DNA from: a bacterium
Lineage (GTDB): Bacteria > Patescibacteriota > Patescibacteriia > JAACEG01 > JAGUWE01
Direction: 5' to 3'
Length of the DNA: 64,000 nucleotides
NCBI GenBank assembly: GCA_043798995.1
Contig: JAZDOD010000008.1
Location: 119,468 to 183,467 of the forward strand
Positions 3,716 through 60,726 of the stretch are shown here, piece by piece. Position numbers and translations under genes: made by a program. A model generated the notes under the pieces. That model made no database searches, was not told the origin of the DNA, and saw only the letters and a list, made by a program, of their open reading frames with translations. Each line of letters starts with the position of its first letter. Position 1 is the stretch's first letter.

Positions 3716-5176
3716 TTAGGGATTAAGTTCGCGCCATGAAATAAAAGTATATTCGCCGGATGTAGGAAAGGAGGGCGGCGGACTAAAAGTTAAGTGACCA
3801 TCGTAGGTAATGGTTCGGTTTTGATAACCCGAGCAGTAAGTTTCTCCGCAACTCCAGCTAAAACCATAACGGTTGTAAGTTGCCAGCGAACCGTATAAAG
3901 CGATTGAGTTTCTTTCATAATAAGTTGAGCTGCAACTTGAAGTAAAATAATAGCGGCCGATTCTGCCACTTTTGGCCACCAGCGAAGCGTCAATTTCCAA
4001 ATTGTCGTCACTGTATAAACCAACGGTAATGTTGCGCTGGGCAATTAAACCCAAAACATCAGAGCCGTTTTTATTAGTATACAATAAATTATGATTGATG
4101 ATAATATCAGCATCGCCGCTAGCCAAAGGTTCTCGGGCCGCTACCAAAGTAAGGCGGCTATTATTAATTTGGCCGTCAACCCAAACCTTATCTTCAATAA
4201 AGATTATGCCATTAGCCGGCAGAGGTTCGCCTAATTGAGGATTGTTCATAGTTTGGGCAATGCCGTCGGTATCGGTACTGCCACAAGTGTCTGTAACCGT
4301 TTTTACTATATAAATATCTACGGTTTGATTGGAATTAAAGTGCAGCCAATAACCGCGTTTGTTGGATTTATCAAGATAGAGTCCGTTGTTTTTAGCCAAT
4401 GTTTTTAAATCAGCCAGATTAGTAGTAAAGCCGTTAAAATCAACTGTGGTTACAGGAAATTTTCGGCCGGCTTGAAAAACATCCGTTCTTTGGGGGACAG
4501 CGGCTGGTGGTTGCGGGTCTTGAGGAGCAGTATGAGTATGGACTCCGAATTCAGTTTGGCTGTCATCTGGATCAACATAAGTTTGTCTGGCGCTGGTAAC
4601 AATATTGTGTGCCACGCCGTCAAATCTAATGCCGCCATTGGAATGAATCGGGCCATAGGTTTGGGTGCCGCTGCCAAAACGCATATCGGCATTTGCCACC
4701 ACAGCATAGGCAGAGAGCGCCGGAATGCCGTATTGAGCCAGAATTATTCGCTTGATATTTGGATAACTCAAAAGCCAGCCGGTTGATTGAATTGAAACAA
4801 TGGTAGTGTTAGGCATAGGCGTGATAATTAAGCTGAATTGGCCGATGATGTTGCCCTGAGGGTCGCGAAAATCATGGACATAAGGGCCGGCTCCGCCGGT
4901 TCCGTCCTGAAAATCGTCTGGTTCGTGCGCTAAATGCCAGCGGTAATAATTAATGCCGGCTTCAGCCACATGAATCGCTTGGGCTTTGGCTACTTTGTAT
5001 TTATTCAACTTATACTGATAAACCACCAGCGAAAGCAATCCGCCGGCTAAAATGATGAAGATGGAGGTGAAAACGAGAAGGGAAACCAAGATAGCTCCTT
5101 GATTAATAACTTCTGACTTCTGACTTTTTCCGCCAGAGGCGGATCCGCCTTTGGCGGAGACTTTTGACTTTATCAT
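3716..5176 (-). CDS. PilX-like minor pilin / pilus-associated protein
   Basis: N-terminal QGAILVSLLVF hydrophobic helix resembling the PilX_N domain, with no Glu at position +5. A large Gly/Thr-rich extracellular domain follows. Confidence 0.4.
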   Translation of the reverse strand: MIKSKVSAKGGSASGGKSQKSEVINQGAILVSLLVFTSIFIILAGGLLSLVVYQYKLNKYKVAKAQAIHVAEAGINYYRWHLAHEPDDFQDGTGGAGPYVHDFRDPQGNIIGQFSLIITPMPNTTIVSIQSTGWLLSYPNIKRIILAQYGIPALSAYAVVANADMRFGSGTQTYGPIHSNGGIRFDGVAHNIVTSARQTYVDPDDSQTEFGVHTHTAPQDPQPPAAVPQRTDVFQAGRKFPVTTVDFNGFTTNLADLKTLAKNNGLYLDKSNKRGYWLHFNSNQTVDIYIVKTVTDTCGSTDTDGIAQTMNNPQLGEPLPANGIIFIEDKVWVDGQINNSRLTLVAAREPLASGDADIIINHNLLYTNKNGSDVLGLIAQRNITVGLYSDDNLEIDASLVAKSGRIGRYYFTSSCSSTYYERNSIALYGSLATYNRYGFSWSCGETYCSGYQNRTITYDGHLTFSPPPSFPTSGEYTFISWRELNP

Positions 5177-7968: not shown

Positions 7969-8100
7969 TTTTATAAAATTTAAAATTAAAAATCAAATAT
8001 AAAAAATTTAAAACACATATTTAAAAATAAAAAAATAATTTTTGCATTTTTGGTTTGCATTTTTTGTTTTTGAAATTTTATATTTTATTTTTCAGTATTT

Positions 8101-9165
8101 TTATATTGCTTGCGTTAACGAATACATCGGCATGATGACAGCAATAGCCATGCCAGCCACGGCCACGCCCAAAATAAGAATTAATACCGGTTCAATTATT
8201 GAAGGCAAATTTTTCATAATTTGATCAATGTCGTTTTCATAAAATTCAGCCAACTCTTCTAAAACATTATCAAGACTGCCGGTTTGTTCGCCAACGAGAA
8301 TCATCTGGGTGACAACCGGCGGAAAAAGAGATCCATTTTTCTTTAGTAATTCTCCCAAAGAAATACCTTTGGTAACGCTGCGCGAAGCTTTAAGCACTTC
8401 TTCTTTGTATAAAACATTGCCTAAGATATTGGCCGTGATATCAAGAGTTTGCATAATCGGAATATCAGTTTTTAAAAGGGAAGAGAAAGTGCGGGAAAAG
8501 CGGGCTAAATTTATTTTTTTGATTATCGACGCAATAATAGGTAGTCGTAAAAGTATTGAATGAAAAATATATTTGCCGCGTTTGGTTGAAATTAATTTGA
8601 AGAAAAAATAAATTAACCCGATCAAGGCAATAATAACAACCAGATAATTTTGGATAACAAACTCGCTGGTCGCCATAAGAACCCGGGTTGGCAAAGGCAA
8701 AGTTACCTCCGCTTCTTTAAAGACAGCCGTAATTTTGGGAATGACAAAAACTATCATTAAAGTGCCAATGACAATCATGGCAAAAACTACCACGGCCGGA
8801 TAAATCATCGCGCCTTTGACCTTGGAACGAAGTTCATGATCTTTTTTCATCTGAATATAGATTCGGCGCAGGACATTTTCCAACTGGCCGCTGGCTTCCC
8901 CGGCTTTAATCATATTGACAAAAAGATTGTCAAAAACACGGTTGTATTTGGCCAAATGATTGGAAAGCGGTTCACCCTTTTCCACCCCTTGAGTAATATC
9001 AACAATGATTTCTTTAAATCGTTTGTTTTCGGTTTGAAGCGAAAGCGTTTTTAAAGCCTCGGCCAGTGAAATCCCTGCTTTAAGCATTACTTCTAAGTGC
9101 TGGACGAAAAAAATTTTCTCTTTGACAGGAATTCGTTTAAACTTTTTTAAAAAATTTAATTGCAT
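8101..9165 (-). CDS. pilC: type IV pilus inner-membrane platform protein PilC (GspF family)
   Basis: T2SS-F domain motifs, 3 TM segments, 354 aa. Confidence 0.8.
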   Translation of the reverse strand: MQLNFLKKFKRIPVKEKIFFVQHLEVMLKAGISLAEALKTLSLQTENKRFKEIIVDITQGVEKGEPLSNHLAKYNRVFDNLFVNMIKAGEASGQLENVLRRIYIQMKKDHELRSKVKGAMIYPAVVVFAMIVIGTLMIVFVIPKITAVFKEAEVTLPLPTRVLMATSEFVIQNYLVVIIALIGLIYFFFKLISTKRGKYIFHSILLRLPIIASIIKKINLARFSRTFSSLLKTDIPIMQTLDITANILGNVLYKEEVLKASRSVTKGISLGELLKKNGSLFPPVVTQMILVGEQTGSLDNVLEELAEFYENDIDQIMKNLPSIIEPVLILILGVAVAGMAIAVIMPMYSLTQAI

Positions 9166-27778: not shown

Positions 27779-27990
27779 CGGGGTTTTAAACCCCATTGAA
27801 AGGATTTACTTTATATTCTTTCATCCCCGCAAAAAGTTCTAGGGTACTCGAGAAAGGGAATATAAAAATATCATACCCTCTAATTCGCGCGAATAAGGGA
27901 ATAAGGAGTTGTAGTTTTTAGCTTTGCACTTTTCCCGCTTTCAGCGGGATCCCGCCATCGGCGGTGATAATTTTTACTTTAATAATTATG

Positions 27991-29111: not shown

Positions 29112-31607
29112 ATGCCTAAAAAACAAAAAGATAAAACTAAAAAGAAAGTGAAGAAATTAAGAAAGAAAGTTAAACTTGTTTCTAAAAAGCCCGCCCAGCG
29201 AGTAAAGCGGGCTATTAAAGTTAAAAAAGCCACAGGGAAACCATTAAAAAATGAAAATAAAATTGCCCGGATTTTTAAAAGAGAAAGCAAAATTGAAGAG
29301 CCCGAACTATTAGATTTGCCGGCCGAAACGCCAGCAGAAGAAAAAGAAGAAACAAAACAGAGTTATATTTCACCCCATCTTATTAATTTAAAAGAACCGG
29401 CCAAAGAAAAAGAAGAGCCCACCACGGATGATTTTAGAAAAACTCGGCCGGAAAAACCACGCAAGATTAGTTTTTTAAAAATTAATCTCATAAGAAAAAT
29501 TAATAAAGAGCCACGATTGACTTTTGTTTTTAGCCGAACTTTGGTGGCGGAACTGGCGATTTTTTTGTTTGTTTCTTTTGTCTTGGTTTCAATCCTTTTT
29601 TCTTTTAATTTTTTACAAAATCTAAAAGAAGGACTGCTTACAACTCGCGGCAAAGTTTTAGGCGAAGCTTCAACTGCCGTGGAACATCTTTTAAGCGGCA
29701 GCCAGGAACTTTTAAACTACAACCCCAGCAGCGCTTCCTATCAGTTTTCCCAGGCCGATGAATATTTTAATCAAGCTGGAAAAGAACTTGAAGGAATTAA
29801 TAGTTTAATTAAAGAGACGGCTAAAATTATTCCTTACGATCAGGGCGCGCTTGAGTCAGCTGATTCATTGGTTGAGGCCGGTAAAAATATCACTCTGGCC
29901 GCTTTGTATCTACCTGAAATATTAAATATCATCAATCGGCCGAACAAAGATTTTGGTTACGAAAATAGAGAATCAATTATTATTAATAATGAATCTTTAG
30001 TCGTTGGTCATTTACAGAAAAATTTTTATCAAAAATTAGAAGATTTAAATCTTAATTTAGCTTTAGCAGCTGACAGATTAACCATAGCCAATAATAATTT
30101 AACCGTAGTTAAAAGCGAAATTATTCCCGAAAATAAAAGAGAAGAATTTCTGCGCCTTAAAGAACAGTTAATGGAAGTTGAGGATAAATTTTTCCGCCTG
30201 AGCGAACTAACTGAAGCCTGGCTTGATATTTTAGGCCGAAAAGAATTAAAAAAATATTTGGTGATTTTTCAAAATAATAACGAATTGCGCTCAACAGGCG
30301 GCTTTATGGGCAGTTTTGCTTTAGTCACCGTTGACAAGGGTTTAATTAAGAAAGTTGAATTTCCCGAAGGCGGCAGTTATGACATCCAGGGCCAGCTTTT
30401 AGAGCGCGTTAAACCGCCCTCGGCGCTTAATTTAATTAATTCGCGCTGGTATTTTCACGATGCCAATTGGTGGCCGGATTTTCCGACCACGGCCCGGAAA
30501 CTCATTTGGTTTTATGAAAAAAGCGGCGGCCCGACTCCCGATGGCGTGGTGGCGATTACGGCCGATATAATGAAAGACCTATTGCAATTTACCGGTCCGG
30601 TTGAAGTGCCTGACTATCAAAAAACCATTACGGCCGAGAATTTTTATGAAGAAACGCAAAGAGCCGTTGAATTAGAATATGACAAAGAGGCCAATCGTCC
30701 AAAAAAATTTATGGTAGCTCTGGCTCTTGAATTTTTTAAAAAATTTACCCAGGATGAGAAAAATTTTCAGAATTTTTTCCAACTTTCGGATAAAATTTTT
30801 TCCCAAAAAACGATCCAATTTTACTTTACTAATGAAAAGACCGAAAAAGTTTTTACCTATTTTAATTTAACAGGCCAAATTAAAAATTTGCCAGGCGATT
30901 ATTTGGCAATTATCAATACCAATTTGCGCGGCGGTAAGACCGATAATTTTATTAAAGAAAAACTTTATTTGGAAACTGAGATTGATAATAATGGTCAAAT
31001 TATAAACAAATTGACTCTGGAAAGGACTCATACCGGGGACCCAAATAATTTTTTTGGAAAAACAGTCAATCTTGATTATTTAAGAATTTATGCGCCAAAA
31101 GGAGCTAAACTTCTGAGCGCTTCGGGTTTTAATCCGCCGGAAGCCAAAAGCTATTATTCAGAAGATGAAACATTGGCGCTTGATGCGGATTTAGCCCGTC
31201 TTGAAAATGAGGTGACCATTGATCCCCCCAGCGGCACCAAAATTTATGATCAGTTTGGTAAAACTGTTTTTGCCAACTGGGTTCAGGTAGCGCCGGGTGA
31301 AACTTCAAAAATTATTTTGACTTATCAGCTGCCTTTTACTTTAGACAAGAGATCGGAAAAAGAAGAGAAAAATTATTATGATTTAATTCTGGGAAAACTA
31401 TTAGGCAAAGAAAATATTGATTCTCAGGAAGATTTTCGGACTTATACTTTATTGATCCAAAAACAGGCCGGTGATAATAATTTAGTGTTTAATCAGAAGA
31501 TTAATTTACCGAATAATTGGCAGCTTATTTGGCAGAATAAAGAATTGCCGGCTGAAATTAATCTGCTTCAAGATAATTTTTACGGCGTAATTTATCAGGT
31601 TAAATAA
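29112..31607 (+). CDS. large Lys-rich membrane/surface protein, DUF4012-like
   Basis: K-rich N-terminus, a TM segment and an LRSTGGFMGSFALV core block. The DUF4012 assignment is from memory of that family. Confidence 0.45.
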   Translation: MPKKQKDKTKKKVKKLRKKVKLVSKKPAQRVKRAIKVKKATGKPLKNENKIARIFKRESKIEEPELLDLPAETPAEEKEETKQSYISPHLINLKEPAKEKEEPTTDDFRKTRPEKPRKISFLKINLIRKINKEPRLTFVFSRTLVAELAIFLFVSFVLVSILFSFNFLQNLKEGLLTTRGKVLGEASTAVEHLLSGSQELLNYNPSSASYQFSQADEYFNQAGKELEGINSLIKETAKIIPYDQGALESADSLVEAGKNITLAALYLPEILNIINRPNKDFGYENRESIIINNESLVVGHLQKNFYQKLEDLNLNLALAADRLTIANNNLTVVKSEIIPENKREEFLRLKEQLMEVEDKFFRLSELTEAWLDILGRKELKKYLVIFQNNNELRSTGGFMGSFALVTVDKGLIKKVEFPEGGSYDIQGQLLERVKPPSALNLINSRWYFHDANWWPDFPTTARKLIWFYEKSGGPTPDGVVAITADIMKDLLQFTGPVEVPDYQKTITAENFYEETQRAVELEYDKEANRPKKFMVALALEFFKKFTQDEKNFQNFFQLSDKIFSQKTIQFYFTNEKTEKVFTYFNLTGQIKNLPGDYLAIINTNLRGGKTDNFIKEKLYLETEIDNNGQIINKLTLERTHTGDPNNFFGKTVNLDYLRIYAPKGAKLLSASGFNPPEAKSYYSEDETLALDADLARLENEVTIDPPSGTKIYDQFGKTVFANWVQVAPGETSKIILTYQLPFTLDKRSEKEEKNYYDLILGKLLGKENIDSQEDFRTYTLLIQKQAGDNNLVFNQKINLPNNWQLIWQNKELPAEINLLQDNFYGVIYQVK

Positions 31608-31613
31608 TATAAT

Positions 31614-33569
31614 ATGCCCAAAATTCCTATCAACAATAATTCCCCGCAGCCAGAGGAATCGGAAGACGGCGTTTTTCATCAGAAAGAAATCAAAGATGAT
31701 TTGATGGACATTTATCGTGATGGAGACGGCAAAATCCCGGATATGAGCCGAATTGAAATTGACAAAAAATCTCGGCTGAAATTGTTTTTGGCAAGATTCT
31801 TTTCTTTTCTCTTTATTATCGGGTTGATCGGTTTGGTGATTTATCTCATCATTCAGCGAGTTAATTATAATAATCAAGGCAAGCAGAGTCTTTCGCTGGA
31901 GGTGCAGGCGCCGCAGGTTTTGGCCTCGGGCGACAAGATAGTTTACAAAATTAATTATATTAATAATGAACAGGCGGCTTTGAATAATAATCAGCTTAAT
32001 GTTGATTATCCCGAAGGTTTTGTTTTTGAATCAGCTGATCCGGCGCCAAGCTCTGAATACAAAAACGTTTGGCAATTGGGTCGGCTTGAGGCCGGCGAGA
32101 AAAAGCTGGTAACAATTATCGGCCGTTTGATTGCGTCGCCTGATTCCGAGCAGAATCTAAAAATCATTGCTTCCTATGAGCCGGAAAATTTCCATTCTGA
32201 GTTTCAGAAATCGGTATTTTTCGCAACTAAGATAGTGGCTAATGTGATTGATTTGACAATTGAGGGTCCGGATAAGATTTTAGCCGATCAGTCAACTATT
32301 TATAGAATCAAATATAAAAACAATTCAGATCAGCCGATAGAAAAAATGCAGATAGATCTTGTCTACCCTTCAGATTTTAAATTTATTGAAGCCAGCCCCG
32401 TGCCTTCAAGCCCGATTGAGGGCGAAAAACAAAATAATCTCTGGTTAGTTGAAAGTTTGGGAGGGCTCTCTTCGGGTGAAATTAATATTAAAGGCTCTTA
32501 TCCGCAAAATTTAACCCAAGACCAGCAGTTAAAGGTTCAGATAAAAATTAAAGATCTTAACGATCAGCTGAAAATTTTAACAGAAAAAGATTTTACGAGC
32601 CACACTCTCGGTAGCGCCTTAAGTTTGAATTTAATCATTAATGGCGCTTCGGCCGACAATTCGGCTAATTTTGATGACTGGTTAAATTATTCCATTGTTT
32701 ATAAAAATAAAAGCGATACACCGCTTAATAATGTCAAAATTAGTGTTCAGGTTTTAGCTTCAGCCGGTGATACGCCATTTAATTTTATTGATTGGTCAAA
32801 AATTGCCGATGATAATCACGGCCAGCTTTCAGACAATCAAATTAACTGGACAAGCAATGAAATTTCAGAATTAAACTCACTTGATGCCGGCGAGGAAGGC
32901 GTGATTGATTTTAAAATTAAGCTCAAATCTTATCAGGAGCTGGAAGAACAAATTAAAAAAATAAGCTCAACTGATTATAAAATTGTTTCTCAAGCCAGCT
33001 TGCAAGGCGAAAACGGCTCTACAACCCAGTCAGACGGACAAACCTTGCCAATTATTTTAAAAAGCAATCAAATAACCACCCGAATTTTAAGCAACGCGAC
33101 TTTTACGGCCCAGGCCCGTTATTTTAATGATGACAACATCGCGGTTGGCAGCGGCCCCTTACCGCCGAAAGTTGGGCAGACTGCTAAATATCGCATTTAC
33201 TGGACAATCGGCAACAGCCTCCATGAGTTGGAAAATATCACTATTACGGCTAATTTATCGCCAAATATTAATTTCAGCAACCGGACCAACGCCGCTCAAG
33301 GAGAAATTTCTTATTCGTCTTCAAGCAGGGCCGTCAACTGGACCGTAAAATCTATCGCGGCTAAGGCCGGCGAGATTGAGGCTGATTTTGAAGTTGAGGT
33401 CACGCCTCGCGAAGAAGATTTGAATAAAATAATCAGTCTGGTTGGCCAATCAACTTTAACCGCCACCGACAAACAAAACAACCTCCCCTTAACTTTGAAC
33501 GCCAAACCGCTTACTTCTAATTTAGACGGTGATCCTATTGCCGAAGGCAAAGGACTGGTGACAAATTAA
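31614..33569 (+). CDS. membrane-anchored surface protein with tandem Ig-like (DUF11/CARDB-like) repeats
   Basis: N-terminal TM, then about 5 repeats containing GEKKLVTIIGRL, GEINIKGSY and GEIEADFEVEV. Confidence 0.4.
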   Translation: MPKIPINNNSPQPEESEDGVFHQKEIKDDLMDIYRDGDGKIPDMSRIEIDKKSRLKLFLARFFSFLFIIGLIGLVIYLIIQRVNYNNQGKQSLSLEVQAPQVLASGDKIVYKINYINNEQAALNNNQLNVDYPEGFVFESADPAPSSEYKNVWQLGRLEAGEKKLVTIIGRLIASPDSEQNLKIIASYEPENFHSEFQKSVFFATKIVANVIDLTIEGPDKILADQSTIYRIKYKNNSDQPIEKMQIDLVYPSDFKFIEASPVPSSPIEGEKQNNLWLVESLGGLSSGEINIKGSYPQNLTQDQQLKVQIKIKDLNDQLKILTEKDFTSHTLGSALSLNLIINGASADNSANFDDWLNYSIVYKNKSDTPLNNVKISVQVLASAGDTPFNFIDWSKIADDNHGQLSDNQINWTSNEISELNSLDAGEEGVIDFKIKLKSYQELEEQIKKISSTDYKIVSQASLQGENGSTTQSDGQTLPIILKSNQITTRILSNATFTAQARYFNDDNIAVGSGPLPPKVGQTAKYRIYWTIGNSLHELENITITANLSPNINFSNRTNAAQGEISYSSSSRAVNWTVKSIAAKAGEIEADFEVEVTPREEDLNKIISLVGQSTLTATDKQNNLPLTLNAKPLTSNLDGDPIAEGKGLVTN

Positions 33570-33696
33570 ATCCCAATATCCAAATCCCAATTTCAAATCA
33601 AATTCTAAATCCCAATAAAAAATAGTTTTTTGGATTTTGGACTTTGGATTTGATCCGCCAACTGGCGGATTGAGTTTGGGATTTTTGATTTCTAGT

Positions 33697-34995
33697 ATGT
33701 TTCAAATAATTAAAAAAAGTTCAAAAAGTTCTGCTCGAGTCGGAATTATTACAACACCTCACGGAGAAGTTAAGACCCCTTGTTTTATGCCGATCGCGAC
33801 TAAGGGGGCGGTGAAAAATTTAACGCCGGAGGAATTAAAATTTTTAGGTGCTGATTTGATTTTGGGCAATACCTATCATTTATGGCTAAGACCGGGCGTA
33901 AAAGTTATCAATAAAGTTGGCGGTTTACATAAATTTATGAATTGGTCTGGCCCGATTTTGACCGATTCAGGGGGATATCAGGTATTCTCTTTAGAGAATA
34001 AAGTCAAAAGTCAAAAGTCAAAAGTCAAAAATTTAAGTCAAAATTCAAAAGGTTATAAAAATAATTCTTTAAGTTTGGTTAAAATCGCCGATAGGGGGGT
34101 TGAGTTTAGAGATCCGTTTGATGGCAAAACTTATTTTTTAACTCCGGAAAAGGCAATTGAGATTCAATTGAAACTCGGCTCGGATATTATTATGGTTTTG
34201 GACGAATGCCCGCCTTACCCCTGCACCCGCGAACAGGCCAAAAAAGCGGTACATCGGACAACCGAATGGGCGAGAAGATGCAAAAAATTTTTCATAAAAC
34301 ATGTAACATGTAACCTGAAACATGAAAAAAGACCGTTGCTGTTTGGGATAATACAGGGTTCGGTTTATCAAGGTTTAAGAATAAAAGCTATCAGAGATTT
34401 ACTGGCAATAGGCTTTTCCGCCAAAGGCGGACCAGCCTCTGGCTGGGACGGTTATGCTATTGGCGGCGTGGCAGTAGGCGAGCCGCGGCAATATTTGGCT
34501 AAAATTCTAAAATGGGTAATACCGCTTTTACCCGAGGACAAACCTTGTTATTTAATGGGCTTAGGCAGGCCCGAAGAAATTGTTGAAGCGGTGAAATTGG
34601 GCATTGATCTTTTTGACTGCGTCATCCCAACGAGAGAAGCGAGACATGGCAGGTTATACCTTTGGAAAAATCCGAAATCCGAAATCCCTGCCCGCCATCG
34701 GCTTACACCTCAGGCGTTAGCAGGCGGGCGAAATCCGAAAAAAATCCGAAATCCGAAATCCAAAAATAAGAATTGGGAATTTTATGAGATGATAAATATT
34801 TTAAACTCTAAATATAAAAACGATTCTAATCCTATTAATCAAACTAATTTAAAAAGTTATTCAAGGGCATATTTACACCATCTTTTTAAAATGGGTGAAC
34901 CTTTAGCCCAACGGCTGGCCACATTAAACAATTTAGAATTTTATTTATCTTTAATGGTGAACTTGCGTCAGGCAGTTAAAATTGACAAAATTTAA
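33697..34995 (+). CDS. tgt: queuine tRNA-ribosyltransferase Tgt with two in-frame repeat-derived insertions
   Basis: PCFMPIATKGAVK, LGNTYHLWLRPG, GPILTDSGGYQVFSL, GYAIGGVAVGE and SRAYLHHL. The Zn cysteines are absent. The start is the ATG at 33697. Confidence 0.85.
   Translation: MFQIIKKSSKSSARVGIITTPHGEVKTPCFMPIATKGAVKNLTPEELKFLGADLILGNTYHLWLRPGVKVINKVGGLHKFMNWSGPILTDSGGYQVFSLENKVKSQKSKVKNLSQNSKGYKNNSLSLVKIADRGVEFRDPFDGKTYFLTPEKAIEIQLKLGSDIIMVLDECPPYPCTREQAKKAVHRTTEWARRCKKFFIKHVTCNLKHEKRPLLFGIIQGSVYQGLRIKAIRDLLAIGFSAKGGPASGWDGYAIGGVAVGEPRQYLAKILKWVIPLLPEDKPCYLMGLGRPEEIVEAVKLGIDLFDCVIPTREARHGRLYLWKNPKSEIPARHRLTPQALAGGRNPKKIRNPKSKNKNWEFYEMINILNSKYKNDSNPINQTNLKSYSRAYLHHLFKMGEPLAQRLATLNNLEFYLSLMVNLRQAVKIDKI
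34002..34031. repeat. heptanucleotide microsatellite (AAAGTCA)x4 inside tgt
   Basis: Direct tandem repeats. Confidence 0.8.
34666..34760. repeat. composite insertion inside tgt: (AAATCCG)n direct repeats flanking a GCCCGCC/GGCGGGC hairpin
   Basis: aaatccgaaatccgaaatcc - hairpin - cgaaatccgaaaaaaatccgaaatccgaaatcc. Confidence 0.7.
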
Positions 34996-35060
34996 ACTAA
35001 AAAGTCCTTTCAAAAAGGACTTTTTTTATGGTCCCAGAAAAAACTCACATCGCTGAGGTT

Positions 35061-35915
35061 TTAATAAGCGATTATTTCCTTTAGTAATTTATTAACAAAA
35101 GTCATTTCAGAATCTTTGGTGATAACGATATCAAAATTCTTCCGATAATTTTTGAGATTTTCTTTGACATTTTTATTCAAAAAACCAATTTTGATTAAGT
35201 TGTCATATCTAAAACCTTTAATCATACCAATATCTGATAAATTATCGCCCAGTAAAATGACATTTTTTCTTTTTTTAATTATTTTATAGACCGGGAAATT
35301 TTTAACCATTGTTTCGTCTTTGTTTAACGAATGAATAATTGGCTTTTTAACGCCTATTATTTTGCCCCGTTGGCTCCACTTAAGAGAATTAGATATAATA
35401 TAAATGTTGGGGTATAATCGTTTTTTATTTTTAAAATACATTGAAATTGACTCAGTGCCCAGTCCGCTAGCCGACATAACAACGAGAGGTATTTTAAAGC
35501 GGTAAAGCAGATCGAAAAATTGCAGAGCGCCCTTTCTAAACTGAATTTTTCCTGAGTCAATGACTCGCTTGACATCTTTTAATTTGAGCCCGGTTTTTAT
35601 TAATAATTTAAAGTGCGTAGTCCACCACTTTTGCATTTCTTTCTTTCTTTTGGCAAGGGGAATGTTCTGGTCGACTTCTATTGGATGATATTTTTCAAAA
35701 AGCGCAATGGCTTTCTTGGTATAATCCGCTGTTAAAAGATTACCCGACCTTAAAATTGAGAGAAGAGAGGGCGTTTCCTTGCCGGCAACGAAGGCCTTGG
35801 TCAAAGTTCGGTCAAAATCAGCCAAAATATGAAGTTTATCAACGCCGTCTTTGGCAATTTTTTGTTTTATTTTTTCTAGTTTTTTCAAGTTAGTTATGAT
35901 AACATTTTTTGGCAT
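35061..35915 (-). CDS. HAD-superfamily hydrolase, pyrimidine 5'-nucleotidase-like
   Basis: Motif I DFDRTLT and C-terminal LLGDNLSD. Confidence 0.5.
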   Translation of the reverse strand: MPKNVIITNLKKLEKIKQKIAKDGVDKLHILADFDRTLTKAFVAGKETPSLLSILRSGNLLTADYTKKAIALFEKYHPIEVDQNIPLAKRKKEMQKWWTTHFKLLIKTGLKLKDVKRVIDSGKIQFRKGALQFFDLLYRFKIPLVVMSASGLGTESISMYFKNKKRLYPNIYIISNSLKWSQRGKIIGVKKPIIHSLNKDETMVKNFPVYKIIKKRKNVILLGDNLSDIGMIKGFRYDNLIKIGFLNKNVKENLKNYRKNFDIVITKDSEMTFVNKLLKEIIAY

Positions 35916-35968
35916 AATTTTGGCTTAAAATCCTTTTTATGTTACAATTTTAATACGAAGATTTTATT

Positions 35969-36742
35969 TTGGCAAGCTTTATGGAGGAAATAATCAAAAT
36001 TTTAATTGTCAGCGTCGCCGGTTTTTTAGGCGGTTTTTTAGGCGGGCAGGTTGGGGGAGGGGCTCTTATTACTTTGCCCGTTCTTCTGGCCTTGGGGCTG
36101 GCGCCGTCGGTGGCGATGGGCACCAATGTGCTTCATGGCGTTTTTGGCAATTTAACCAGCGGCTTAAGATATTTTAAAGACAGAAGAATTAATTTTAAAA
36201 AACTTTTGCCTTATTTGATTTTAGCTTTTTTGGGCGCGGCCATTGGCGCTAAGATTAATATTTCTTTTGATCAAATTCTTCTTAAAAAAATCATTGCTTG
36301 GCTTCTGGCGGCTTTAGCAATTTTTACTTTTTTTAAAGATTATTTAGATAAAAAACTTAAAGTAGTTGAAGCGCGCCATAAAAAAGAAATGGAGTACTTT
36401 TCTTTGGTTTTAATTTTTCTTTTGGGAATCTACGGCGGAATGTTCAGCATTGCCATTACCACGCTTATCGCTTTTCTTTTCCTACTTTTTTTAGGTAAAA
36501 ATTTTATTGACAGCATGGCCCATTCGTTTGTGGTGACAACCTTCTGTCTTTTAGGCGGCTCGCTTGTTTACCTTAGCCAAGGCGCGGTTAATTTTTTTTA
36601 TTTTTGGCCGCTCACGATTTTTACTTGTTTAGGTTCCTGGCTCGGGACCGGTTTTGCGATTAAAAAGGGGGAGAGATGGATTCACCAGCTGTTTTTGGTA
36701 ATTGTAATAATTTTAGTTTTGAAATTAATATTGGATTGGTAA
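35969..36742 (+). CDS. TauE/SafE (DUF81) family membrane transporter
   Basis: 8 TM segments and a Gly-rich AMGTNVLHGVFGN motif. Confidence 0.7.
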   Translation: MASFMEEIIKILIVSVAGFLGGFLGGQVGGGALITLPVLLALGLAPSVAMGTNVLHGVFGNLTSGLRYFKDRRINFKKLLPYLILAFLGAAIGAKINISFDQILLKKIIAWLLAALAIFTFFKDYLDKKLKVVEARHKKEMEYFSLVLIFLLGIYGGMFSIAITTLIAFLFLLFLGKNFIDSMAHSFVVTTFCLLGGSLVYLSQGAVNFFYFWPLTIFTCLGSWLGTGFAIKKGERWIHQLFLVIVIILVLKLILDW

Positions 36743-36871: not shown

Positions 36872-37918
36872 ATGGGAGAAAGAATTACGATTCGACGGCC
36901 GGATGATTGGCATACTCATTTACGCGAGAATGAAATGCTGAAATGGGTTTTGCCTTACAGTAATGTTTTTGGCAGGGTGGTAGCAATAGGGAACTTGAAT
37001 AGACCGATTGTTGATGCTTATGATGTTAAAAAATATCGAATGGAGATACTCCGTCAAAAACCTCGCTTTCAACCAGTAATGAGTATTATGTTAGTCAAAC
37101 AGACCACCCCACAGATTATTTGCCGCGCCTTTGAAGAAGGGGCCAGAGTTTTAAAATTCATTCCGGCTGATACTTCAACCGGCTCTCAGGAAGGAATTTC
37201 TCTAATCAATCTTAAAGATTATTACCCGGTATTAGAAATGGCGGAGCGCTTAGTCATGATTTTTTCCGGTCATTGGGAGCTAACCAAAGATCCTGAAACT
37301 GCCCGGGTAATTCCTGAGTTAGAAAGAGAAGAAGCCGCTTTACCTTATCTCAAAAAAGTGATTGATGATTTCCCGAACCTTAAAATTGTTGTTGAACATG
37401 TATCTACGGCTAAAATGATTTATTTTATTGAAAAAGCCCCAGCCAATGTTGCCGCGACTCTGACCGCTCATCATATTGGACCAGCTTATTACCCTAATGT
37501 TTTCAATGAAAAAGGCGAAATAGAAGAACCATTTTATTATTGCCGACCGGTTATCAAAAATATTAAAGATGCGGATGCCGTGATGCGGGCAATGACCAGC
37601 GGCAACCCCAAATTTTTCTTTGGTTCTGATTCAGCGCCTCATCCGATTGAAAAAAAGCTGAAAAATCCGCCCGCGGCCGGTATTTTTTCCGCGCCAGTTG
37701 CTCTCGTGTGGGTATGGACTGCCTTTCAACATAGAAATAATGGTAAAGAATTATTTGAGAACTTTATTTCTCGCTCTGGCGCTGAATTCTACGGCCTGCC
37801 CCTGAATAACAATTATTTAACTCTTGTTAAACAGAAATGGACTGTTCCTAAAACTTATAATGGCATCGTTCCTTTTTTAGCCGGTTTTAAGCTTTATTGG
37901 CAAATCGCCGAGCAGTAA
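36872..37918 (+). CDS. pyrC: dihydroorotase (class II, E. coli type)
   Basis: IRRPDDWHTHLRE and LGSDSAPH motifs. Collinear with E. coli PyrC, with a strong AAAGGAGG Shine-Dalgarno sequence. Confidence 0.85.
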   Translation: MGERITIRRPDDWHTHLRENEMLKWVLPYSNVFGRVVAIGNLNRPIVDAYDVKKYRMEILRQKPRFQPVMSIMLVKQTTPQIICRAFEEGARVLKFIPADTSTGSQEGISLINLKDYYPVLEMAERLVMIFSGHWELTKDPETARVIPELEREEAALPYLKKVIDDFPNLKIVVEHVSTAKMIYFIEKAPANVAATLTAHHIGPAYYPNVFNEKGEIEEPFYYCRPVIKNIKDADAVMRAMTSGNPKFFFGSDSAPHPIEKKLKNPPAAGIFSAPVALVWVWTAFQHRNNGKELFENFISRSGAEFYGLPLNNNYLTLVKQKWTVPKTYNGIVPFLAGFKLYWQIAEQ

Positions 37919-37921
37919 ACC

Positions 37922-38002
37922 CCCACACCTAAATCTTTAGATTTAGGTGTGGGGGTAAATTTTCAATAGCCCACTCAAAAAACATCAAAGTGGGCTTTTT
38001 CT
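37922..38002. terminator. tandem hairpins after pyrC
   Basis: A 36-bp perfect palindrome of the CCCCCACACC family (CCCCCACACCTAAATCTTTAGATTTAGGTGTGGGGG), then a GCCCACT...AGTGGGC + T5 terminator. Confidence 0.65.
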
Positions 38003-38369: not shown

Positions 38370-38562
38370 ATTGCCAAGAACTAAAAAACCAACCTCAACG
38401 GTTGGCTTTTTAGTTCTTGTATATTAAGGCGCGTAGAACCAGTGTTTTAAAATGGCAAATTTTTCTTTTCTTTGTCCATTATAGCGGATTTAAAAAATTT
38501 GTCAAGAGCCACGATCTGTTATATACTAATAACTAACAACTATTAACTAATAACTAAACCAT

Positions 38563-39190: not shown

Positions 39191-39313
39191 TTGTCATTCC
39201 GGACTTGATCCGGAATCCAGATTATTTCTATGACAAATTATTTCACTGGATTCCTGCTCCCCGCTTTCGCGGGGACAAGTTTACCCCTGCGGAAGCAGGG
39301 GCAGGAATGACAG
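39191..39313. repeat. hairpin-repeat cluster (TGTC-hairpin-CCAG / CTGG-hairpin-GACA family), including a predicted three-way junction
   Basis: TGTCATTCCGGActtgaTCCGGAATCCAG, then CTGGATTCCTGC[CCCCGCtttcGCGGGG]...[CCCCTGCggaaGCAGGGG]GCAGGAATGACAG. Confidence 0.7.
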
Positions 39314-44030: not shown

Positions 44031-44164
44031 CAGGTTTAGTTAAAAGTTTAAAGTTTAAAGTGAAAAGTCAAAGTCCAAAATTAAAAATTATTGCTAAAAG
44101 CTAAAATTTTAACTTGAAAATTTAATTTTTAACTTTTCATTTTTAACTTTTAACTATTTATTTT

Positions 44165-52967: not shown

Positions 52968-53230
52968 GCGCTTGCGAATCAAGGGAAATTACAAGCTCCA
53001 AACTCCAAATCCCAAACAAATCCCAATCTTTTGGGGTTATGGTCTAAGGTTTACGGTTTATGGAAGCCAGTTTAGTAAAATGGTTTAAGGTTTATAGTAA
53101 AAAATAATACCAAAGACAATAAACTATTAACCAAACCAGCAGCCATAAACTATAAACTAAAGACAAAAATCTTTAATTTATTTAGGTTAATTAGAATAAT
53201 TAGGTCAATTAGAAATTTTGATTGAAACAT

Positions 53231-59568: not shown

Positions 59569-60726
59569 ATGAAAAAAGTTTTGCTTTTAACTTTGGATTT
59601 TCCGCCGCAGACCGGCGGAGTTGCTAATTATTTGGCTAATATTAGCCAAAATTTGTCAGCAGATAAAATTTCCATTTTAACAGTCAGGCAAAGTGGTTCA
59701 GCTAAATTTGATCAAAAACAGGGCTATAAAATTTATCGGGAAAATTTAATAAGTCAACTGCCAATTTGGCCCAAGTGGCTTGCGGCAATTTATCACGCTT
59801 TTCAGGTTATTAAAAAAGAAAAACCGGATTTAATTTTAGTTGGTCAAATTTTGCCTTTAGGCACGGTCGCTTTAGTCATTAAAAAACTTACAGGTCTTAA
59901 CTATTTTGTCTCTTGTCATGGTATGGATATTTTGCTGGCGCAAAAAAACAAGCGAAAAAAATGGCTGACAACTCTAATAATTAAAAACTCCCAACAGATT
60001 ATTGCTAATAGCCAATTTACTAAAAAAGAAATTATGAAATTGGGGGCAGGGGAGAATAAAATAACGGTAATTTATCCTTGCCCCCACACCAATATAATTG
60101 GTGTGGGGGCTTGTCCGAATATAACTAACAACCAACAACTTAACAACAAACAACTAAATGAAAAATTTAATTTATCTAATAAGAAAGTTCTTTTAACCGT
60201 TGGCAGATTAGTTGAACGAAAAGGACAAGACCAAGTTATTCGGGCTTTACCCGAGGTGATTAAAAGTTTTCCCAAACTCGTTTATTTTATTGTTGGCAGC
60301 GGGCCTTATCAGGGCGAGTTAGAAAAATTAGCCAAAGAATTAAATTTAGAAGATAAGATTATTTTTGCCGGCAGAGTGAATGATGAAGAATTAACCAATT
60401 ATTACCAAACAGCTGATATTTTTATTATGGCATCAAGACAAATTGCCGGCGATGTTGAGGGCTTTGGCATTGTTTATTTGGAGGCGGCTTCTTTCGGCTT
60501 GCCCGTCATTGCCGGCCGATCCGGCGGAGTAGGAGAAGCTGTGTTAGATGGACAAACTGGTATTTTGGTTAATCCGGAAAACATAAAAGAGATTGCCCAA
60601 GCAATTATAAAATTATTGGCAGATGAGAATTTAGCCAAAAAAATGGGACAAACAGGGAAGGAAAGAGTAGAAAAGGAATTTCAGTGGTCTAAACAAGCAG
60701 CGAAGTTAAAAGAATTATTAAAATAA
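59569..60726 (+). CDS. glycosyltransferase family 4 carrying an in-frame palindrome insertion
   Basis: GT4 C-terminal motifs (VGRLVERKGQD, EGFGIVYLEAASFGLPVIA). The 29-bp CCCCCACACC palindrome at 60081-60109 encodes PHTNIIGVGA. Confidence 0.8.
   Translation: MKKVLLLTLDFPPQTGGVANYLANISQNLSADKISILTVRQSGSAKFDQKQGYKIYRENLISQLPIWPKWLAAIYHAFQVIKKEKPDLILVGQILPLGTVALVIKKLTGLNYFVSCHGMDILLAQKNKRKKWLTTLIIKNSQQIIANSQFTKKEIMKLGAGENKITVIYPCPHTNIIGVGACPNITNNQQLNNKQLNEKFNLSNKKVLLTVGRLVERKGQDQVIRALPEVIKSFPKLVYFIVGSGPYQGELEKLAKELNLEDKIIFAGRVNDEELTNYYQTADIFIMASRQIAGDVEGFGIVYLEAASFGLPVIAGRSGGVGEAVLDGQTGILVNPENIKEIAQAIIKLLADENLAKKMGQTGKERVEKEFQWSKQAAKLKELLK

Follow-up and report, generated by a model that had tools for sequence, protein, structure and literature searches.

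Heptanucleotide repeat modules in loops of a Patescibacteria tRNA-guanine transglycosylase gene, probably tolerated and translated as passengers

A 64,000-nucleotide stretch of contig JAZDOD010000008.1 (assembly GCA_043798995.1, positions 119,468 to 183,467 of the forward strand; 37.7% GC), referred to below as the window, carries a gene for a tRNA-guanine transglycosylase (Tgt, gene tgt) in which two loops are lengthened by in-frame arrays of 7-nt units and a GC-rich hairpin. These inserts are probably copies of short repeat modules present throughout the genome and tolerated in surface loops of Tgt, passengers rather than a device regulating tgt. Such a repeat pattern in this radiation appears to be undescribed. 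The literature was searched for in-frame heptamer arrays or hairpin elements in proteins of Patescibacteria (candidate phyla radiation, CPR), and within the limited coverage of that search no description was found. Feature coordinates are collected in Table 1.

The tgt reading frame was matched by the Pfam family TGT (PF01702) with E=1.6e-125 and scored 425 bits over its full length against TIGR00430, above the curated cutoff of 306.75; its ATG at 33697 agrees with the N-termini of homologues. Both catalytic aspartates were found (D90 in LTDSGG, within the motif LTDSGGYQ, and D307 in FDCV), as were the residues of preQ1 type, the Cys of LDEC and the Val of GGVAVGE, in columns invariant across the alignment. 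The reference residues in the Zymomonas mobilis enzyme are D102, D280, the stacking Tyr106 and the preQ1-type Cys158 and Val233 (numbering in part after PMC6165067). The barrel core and the aromatic dimer patch YSRAYLHHL are retained. Barrel, both aspartates, the Cys/Val pair and the dimer patch are common to canonical bacterial Tgt (E. coli, Z. mobilis), from which the window protein differs by four added loop insertions, with the frame open through all four, and by the loss of all four zinc ligands. The gene probably encodes an active enzyme of a Patescibacteria bacterium. Clustering at 90% identity leaves the protein a singleton, with one identical entry in public data; the next relative is 62% identical, and named relatives belong to Moranbacteria, Portnoybacteria and Parcubacteria.

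Alignment with E. coli Tgt (PDB 10fb) breaks into query blocks 11-100, 128-322 and 365-431. The net length between blocks is 27 aa for insert 1 and 42 aa for insert 2, against 2 and 3 aa in E. coli Tgt. A first-pass annotation of this DNA had counted 34 versus 9 aa and 67 versus 32 aa between its own anchors, and these counts hold; its description of two in-frame inserts made from heptamers and a hairpin agrees with the Tandem Repeats Finder (TRF) calls, the direct repeats and the intact reading frame. TRF reported 7.6 copies of (AAAGTCA) across 34000-34051 and (AAATCCG) at 34668-34687 and 34742-34765. In insert 2 two 22-nt stretches that match perfectly in direct orientation (34666-34687 and 34740-34761) bracket the stem GCCCGCC (34690-34696) and GGCGGGC (34723-34729). 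Two further loops are affected, one by a weak heptamer imprint (the third hypervariable loop) and one by a pair of adjacent GC hairpins, the twin hairpin. Five strong tandem runs of period 7 were found in the window, three of them inside tgt, against none or one for each of periods 5, 6, 8 and 9 and none in shuffled sequence.

The AlphaFold2 (AF2) model has a confident core. Its predicted local distance difference test (pLDDT) score is below 50 at residues 116-124 (the C-terminal end of insert 1), 242-244 (a few residues encoded by the twin hairpin), 326-359 (almost the whole of insert 2) and 379-386 (where the zinc loop used to be). In the model, the beginning of insert 1, which the array encodes, prolongs helix 93-110. 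Translational bypassing across the 22-nt repeats was rejected, as a spacing of 74 nt is not divisible by 3 and no stop interrupts the zero frame. An intein or intron in tgt was likewise rejected on size and lack of matching features.

The same loops vary in length among the 120 best Tgt homologues, which are from Patescibacteria: 12-93 aa for the insert-1 segment, 21-69 aa for the insert-2 segment and 19-75 aa for the third loop. An exact stretch of at least 8 aa equal to the translation of a perfect heptamer array was found in 13 of the 120, at one of these three loops in all 13 (0.1 expected by shuffling), and at least seven different heptamers are implied. The SAKGGPASGW-type insert encoded by the twin hairpin is all-or-none (segment of 23 or 13 aa); about 45% of the Tgt homologues from Patescibacteria have it. 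The same loops hold, in a patchy phylogenetic pattern, at least ten further types of recurring peptide that look as if hairpins or palindromes encode them. Recurring loop peptides include SLRSLAMT, PVKS..GTAKQ.FNRV, ARNASRAKLAL..RSDAGG and SA.GGPASGW, and several occupy the insert-1 site in one lineage and the insert-2 site in another. SLRSLAMT, the sole type examined as DNA, is palindrome-encoded in the orthologue at locus L001, and the other recurring peptides are read as probable translations of palindromic DNA elements as well.

Orthologue DNA was compared at the same sites. L001, which is 57% identical and has kept the zinc site, carries AAT(AAAGTCA)x4AAAAAT at the insert-1 site, 36 nt identical to the window. 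Among residues identical in both proteins, 12 of 13 codons are the same within the array and 40% elsewhere (P=1.4e-4). Insert 1 looks homologous in the two loci, with the array kept perfect, because the tail of the insert has diverged while the array is identical. Two AAAGTCA units followed by degenerate sequence stand at insert 1 in L086 and L097, and AAAGTYA arrays at both insert sites in L083. At insert 2, AAATYCC arrays were found in L084 and L085, in the latter as two half-arrays as in the window, without the GC hairpin. L004, from a genome of 53% GC, has (CTCAGGC)x4 at insert 1, and L106 (Moranbacteria) has an AATTTCC array broken by a GC hairpin at insert 2. The layout array / hairpin / array was seen as DNA in insert 2 of the window and of L106 and in window ORF (open reading frame) 3716-5176; the insert-2 peptides of homologues P0019, P0092 and P0103 suggest it too. 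In P0092 a SA.GGPASGW-type peptide occupies the insert-2 site instead.

Gene order is unchanged in L002, the closest relative, which likewise lacks the zinc site. Its loops are short, and its 10.6 kb contain no arrays; insert peptide and DNA repeat are both missing. The first-pass annotation had named the same peptides in orthologues without the DNA repeats as a result that would speak against it; peptide and DNA repeat were found to go together. Directly upstream of tgt in L106 (5728-5853), nine CAAGTAA and four CAAATAA units are followed by inverted TTACTAG units. This 13-unit array is the longest observed, and all short tandem arrays in 17 kb of L106 have period 7 except one of period 8. 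Period-7 density was 10.5 per 100 kb in Patescibacteria loci and 1.3 in other bacteria, a comparison in which the choice of loci is partly biased. A contig scan based on the Tgt alignment relied on generic motifs, and most of its loci came from outside Patescibacteria; it served as outgroup and supplied L003, L004 and L074.

The array is not confined to tgt. JGI metagenome contigs were scanned for GANAAYAAAGTCAAAAGTCAAAA, giving 19 loci at 11 distinct places, of which tgt was only one. Arrays of (AAAGTCA)x4 type were found in frame, in two reading phases, in enolase (L087, L099, L101 and L102), a DegT-family aminotransferase (L089), valyl-tRNA synthetase (ValRS; L103) and the N-terminus of ribosomal protein uL4 (L094). 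The identical AAT(AAAGTCA)x4 is shared by tgt and these four genes, usually with exactly four units. The enolase with the array has a net gain of 5 aa over a solved enolase. A groundwater sample that yielded one of the array-bearing contigs also yielded a Patescibacteria tgt locus.

In the window as a whole, 21 perfect GC-rich hairpins were found against 1.6 in block shuffles. The first-pass annotation had placed the same repeats and a hairpin just upstream of tgt, and array units and a hairpin do occupy 33565-33696; this segment folds at -38.3 kcal/mol (z=-4.15) and is terminator-like for the upstream gene. It had also noted that the hairpin core recurs at 27951, and the 12-mer CCCGCCATCGGC indeed occurs at exactly two positions, 27951 and 34691, with 0.10 expected allowing one mismatch. 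The twin hairpin is present in two unrelated ORFs of the window, tgt and 3716-5176, that is, in 2 copies in 64 kb. In a glycosyltransferase (GT4) gene, ORF 59569-60726, the hairpin stem of 14 bp (GCCCCCACACC...GGTGTGGGGGC) recurs in the intergenic segment 37919-37956. All perfect in-ORF arrays of at least 3 units consist of heptamers that are stop-free on the sense strand, and all five intergenic arrays examined contain stops. Translation of a 7-nt unit runs through all three phases every three units, so that an in-ORF array of this length stays open only if its heptamer is stop-free.

The following course of events would account for these observations. The modules are arrays of tandem heptanucleotides, in many cases accompanied by small GC-rich hairpins, and between genes they take the form array / hairpin / inverted array and resemble terminators. 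Inside genes only filtered copies would survive: those whose total length keeps the frame as a multiple of three, those that land in loops tolerant of extra residues, and those whose heptamer is stop-free in all seven cyclic triplets. Under the frame, loop and stop filters, intergenic repeats would therefore enter genes only in certain loops, orientations and sequences. Surviving copies would be read through by the ribosome as disordered extra loops rich in Lys, Ser, Asn and Gln. Replication slippage or copying from other genomic copies, in either case a process at the DNA level, would generate the arrays and keep them uniform, and hairpins, which behave like structured repeat elements, would be maintained by selection on base pairing. 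Heptamers are reported to be the over-represented class of simple sequence repeat (SSR) in many bacteria, possibly via the polymerase footprint (PMC4692102).

Several points weigh against treating the inserts as inert passengers of wide occurrence. The (AAAGTCA) array is perfect while the sequence beside it in insert 1 has diverged between the window and L001, for which reason an active DNA-level process should still be operating; a perfect array in two diverged lineages suggests continuing homogenisation, by slippage or copying, and the tgt array may occasionally slip out of frame. The left flank GANAAY of the metagenome matches was imposed by the search pattern (copy number was not), and the array-bearing metagenome contigs carry no taxonomic assignment. 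The copy-number comparison given below concerns related arrays in relatives rather than the window locus, whose Tgt is the singleton described above. A blastn comparison of the insert-2 hairpin with the window and the fetched loci gave only matches of 12-14 nt and no second full copy, and a protein database search with the insert-2 peptide gave no match.

The first-pass annotation had also offered a tolerated miniature inverted-repeat transposable element (MITE). Its first word stands, as copies lie both in genes and between genes and the loops are of low confidence. A strict MITE does not fit, since the 22-nt flanks of insert 2 are direct and not inverted. As to copy number, the twin hairpin has the 2 copies already mentioned, and for the insert-2 hairpin only the 12-mer has a second site.

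A stronger reading is tentatively considered, in which Patescibacteria carry undescribed, tiny structured modules (about 4.5 heptamer units, with or without a covarying GC hairpin) that spread within and between genomes, land in or beside arrays and recolonise permissive loops of housekeeping proteins. It draws on the identical AAT(AAAGTCA)x4 in tgt, enolase, DegT, ValRS and uL4, on two tgt lineages that carry the array, with relatives between them that keep the ancestral short loop, and on the array / hairpin / array layout in DNA of the window and L106 and, by suggestion, in P0019, P0092 and P0103. On this reading a measurable share of protein length variation in the radiation would be translated selfish DNA. 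Extra loops and low-complexity stretches of CPR proteins are usually ignored or taken as lineage-specific adaptations. Should many of them prove to be translated heptamer arrays and hairpin elements, such segments should be masked in annotation, alignment and phylogeny of CPR proteins. The CPR would then be a second and much broader natural case, after Rickettsia, of repeat DNA shaping proteins, and the preference for 7-nt arrays could be tested where selection on frame and stops leaves a clear footprint.

It is rather unlikely that the hairpins, possibly together with the arrays, work at the level of RNA or DNA, with the peptide as by-product; such an element may be an mRNA stabiliser, an RNase site, an antisense terminator, a protein-binding site or a hairpin for a single-strand transposase. 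The twin hairpin spans 26-30 nt, encodes SA.GGPASGW and has copies in L083, L084, L074 and L106. When five orthologues are aligned with the unrelated window copy, six sequences in all, 97.2% of cells are paired and four pairs show double changes, a result reached in 0 of 500 shuffles. Compensation includes a synonymous Gly change offsetting an Ala-to-Ser change, and G-U changes occur too; stems are conserved at synonymous sites and loops vary. Related intergenic hairpins are terminator-like, and T-rich GGATTTC units come after the insert-2 hairpin when it is read on the minus strand, as in the upstream terminator module. Yet the covariation comes from only six sequences, and a selfish element needing its hairpin to spread would conserve structure as well. 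The insert-2 fold, moreover, is no better than shuffles (z=-1.54), and an Rfam scan over the whole window gave no match.

The lost zinc site bears on a further explanation. The first-pass annotation had reported the CxCxxC...H motif of canonical Tgt as missing, and the alignment agrees. The zinc domain is called one of two hallmarks of TGTs (PMC6165067). All four ligands are kept in 117 of the 120 best homologues, and the three without them cluster together; P0002 and P0115 show the same loss as the window. The C-terminal 68 aa were searched against 1.84 billion representatives, and of the best 150 matches 46 were without CxCxxC, 87 had it and 17 were unscorable. Most of the zinc-less representatives carry Asn for His (ATLNNLEFY). 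By alignment the window protein is classed as a zinc-less Tgt homologue, presumably active, and the zinc-less form is taken as a sizeable natural lineage rather than a decaying gene because 46 of the 133 scorable representatives lack CxCxxC. So large a lineage raises the question whether the metal is dispensable for this fold.

Lys/Arg-rich inserts might have been selected as basic loops, for tRNA contacts or to replace the stabilisation once given by the zinc site, an explanation we regard as improbable. The inserts are strongly basic (KVKSQKSKVKN; RNPKKIRNPKSKNKN), insert 2 lies at the entry of the former zinc subdomain, and the peptide type ENK.K.QK of insert 1 occurs in several lineages. 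However, the same arrays are found in enolase and DegT, enzymes that do not bind RNA, and other lineages have unrelated, non-basic elements at the same sites. The zinc-less sister L002 has short loops, and the zinc-containing L001 shares insert 1. The DNA identity goes beyond what selection on the peptide explains.

A contingency switch, in which 7-nt slippage by one or two copies would frameshift tgt and toggle queuosine modification, is very improbable. The first-pass annotation had raised it on the ground that slippage of a 7-nt unit shifts the frame. That arithmetic is correct (units at 34000-34030, 34666-34687 and 34740-34761 are not divisible by 3), there are four perfect copies, insert 2 contains A7 runs, and a perfect array beside diverged insert sequence fits ongoing slippage. 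But the tract, with at most four perfect units, is short beside known phase-variable SSRs. Copy number is four in the 57%-identical L001 also, four or four-like copies are modal in unrelated genes, and four groups of close relatives showed no change, namely the enolase locus (flanks 96.5-100% identical), a second locus (97-99%), a third (128-nt flank, 96.1%) and tgt of L086 against L097 (99.5%). Enolase and ValRS are normally essential, so that frequent frameshifts caused by the same array there would be costly. tgt is neither a surface gene nor a restriction-modification gene, and the closest relative L002 manages without arrays. Slips surely happen occasionally and would inactivate tgt; nothing suggests that they are put to use, and the proposed on/off control of queuosine was not borne out.

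An assembly or gene-calling artefact or a decaying pseudogene is scarcely credible: the contig is from a metagenome-assembled genome, repeats are prone to misassembly and a hallmark zinc site is lost, but no stop interrupts the frame across the four separate inserts, the catalytic residues have been kept, independent assemblies of other samples show the same features, substitutions at synonymous sites have reached saturation in a conserved protein (a codon is shared at 40-54% of identical residues), and zinc-less C-termini form the large family described above.

Tolerated, translated repeat modules, the preferred explanation, have precedents in part. Rickettsia palindromic elements (RPEs), like the window repeats, are dispersed, lie between genes and in frame within unrelated housekeeping ORFs, and add peptide at positions compatible with the fold (PMC10969869). 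Each of the ten RPE families, all in one alphaproteobacterial genus, consists of palindromes of about 150 bp and has a conserved peptide, whereas here heptamer arrays of 20-50 nt and GC hairpins of 15-40 nt, often combined, occupy the same loops across a phylum-level radiation. As in RPEs, one repeat family is both intergenic and in unrelated ORFs, and the insertions keep the frame and lie in variable loops. RPEs may be taken as the nearest functional analogy; relatedness in sequence is not expected.

By sequence type, the nearest analogy is with heptanucleotide arrays: short tandemly repeated repetitive (STRR) sequences of Calothrix and Nostoc, GGGAATC in Xanthomonas and TAACTGA in Beggiatoaceae. 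Those arrays and the window have in common an excess of period 7 and frequent inverted intergenic pairs able to form stem-loops (PMC4692102; PMC4679880). The known arrays are described as intergenic, whereas here stop-free heptamers also lie inside conserved enzymes, and the units are unrelated. SSR phase variation at the contingency loci of Haemophilus and Neisseria shares with window tgt a unit inside an ORF that is not a multiple of three; unlike those loci, the present tracts are short and lie in housekeeping genes, some normally essential, and related arrays showed no copy-number difference between close strains. For the hairpins the nearest analogy may be repetitive extragenic palindromic (REP) sequences, their hairpin-forming doublets (REPINs) and terminator-like repeats. 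REP/REPIN, MITE and terminator-like mobile repeats (SPRITE) are, as here, multi-copy small GC-rich hairpins with compensatory changes and a likeness to terminators between genes (PMC3116915). They differ from the window copies in that the latter are predicted to be translated, and the insert-2 flanks are direct, without terminal inverted repeats.

Table 1. Features of the window discussed in the text, in order of position.
Feature	Position	Strand	Basis
Module at 5' end of ORF 3716-5176: AAAGTCA units, twin hairpin 5132-5157, AAAGTCA/GAAGTCA units; read as MIKSKVSAKGGSASGGKSQKSEV	5100..5176	-	repeat and hairpin match
Second copy of 12-mer CCCGCCATCGGC, in an intergenic pair of small GC hairpins	27951..27962	+	exact match
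Intergenic composite: AAATCCC-/AAATCCCAA-type units, inverted TTGGATTT units, GC hairpin 33653-33670 ATCCGCCAACTGGCGGAT, T-rich tail	33565..33696	+	fold, terminator scan
tgt coding sequence, 432 aa, intact	33697..34995	+	profile matches, alignment, catalytic residues
Insert 1, aa 100-133, VFSL to GVEFRDP; net insertion vs E. coli aa 101-127	33994..34095	+	alignment
(AAAGTCA) array, x4 perfect at 34000-34030, then degenerate; read in three phases as KVKSQKSKVKN...	34000..34051	+	TRF
Weak imprint of a heptamer array in the third hypervariable loop (aa ~199-210), CATGAAA/CATGTAA-like x5, 82% matches	34293..34327	+	TRF
Twin GC hairpin TCCGCCAAAGGCGGA + CCAGCCTCTGGCTGG, encodes 10-aa insert SAKGGPASGW	34417..34446	+	two adjacent perfect hairpins
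Insert 2, aa 323-364, turn between strands ...GRLYLW and FYEMINI	34663..34788	+	alignment
Left AAATCCG half-array AAAAATCCGAAATCCGAAATCC, 100% identical to right copy	34666..34687	+	TRF, direct-repeat search
GC-rich hairpin with internally paired loop, encodes PARHRLTPQALAGG	34689..34730	+	fold; shares 12-mer with 27951
Right AAATCCG array, contains 22-nt perfect repeat 34740-34761	34731..34765	+	TRF, direct-repeat search
Zinc-loop remnant, aa 379-386, PINQTNLK; CxCxxC gone with 4-aa deletion (PINQT----NLKSYSRAYLHHL)	34831..34854	+	alignment; pLDDT <50
Asn411 codon in place of fourth zinc ligand His (ATLNNL)	34927..34929	+	alignment
Terminator-like hairpin AAAAAGTCCTTTCAAAAAGGACTTTTT, gap between tgt and convergent gene	34999..35025	.	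sequence, terminator scan
Intergenic inverted array pair, (AAAGTTT/AAAGTCA)n then (TTTAACT)n	44038..44160	.	repeat scan, fold
GT4 glycosyltransferase ORF 59569-60726, interdomain linker: GC hairpin, then array 60123-60157	60080..60157	+	repeat and hairpin scan

The order of a DUF4012 protein, a CLIPPER-like protein of 640-650 aa and tgt is conserved in the window (29112-36742), L002, L001, L086 and L106. A convergent HAD-like ORF (35061-35915) lies between tgt and a TauE gene in the window, and L002 is without it. Intergenic heptamer arrays, often followed by inverted copies, were found at 44038-44160, 7975-8107, 52990-53220 and 38525-38557; inverted pairs would fold into long AT-rich stem-loops between co-directional genes. 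The 37919-37956 hairpin is terminator-like and follows a gene that ends at 37918. A variable linker of SecA contains a short heptamer stretch and no net insertion. Two adjacent GC hairpins (39258-39301) lie within codons 1-41 of the longest SecA ORF and are probably in the 5' untranslated region, because similarity to SecA starts only at aa 42. Uptake-signal-like sequences were rejected as an explanation of the repeats, there being many different heptamers in one window. The heptamers could be imagined as tandemised left arms of terminators (AAATCCG and ATCCGCC, AAAGTCA and AAAAAGTCC), an idea that fits two cases in the window and not L001. A perfect AT-rich palindrome with a 20-bp stem (TTGTAATCAATTCTGATTACAA / TTGTAATCAGAATTGATTACAA) lies between two genes at 14678-14721, where TRF also calls a 22-nt tandem repeat.

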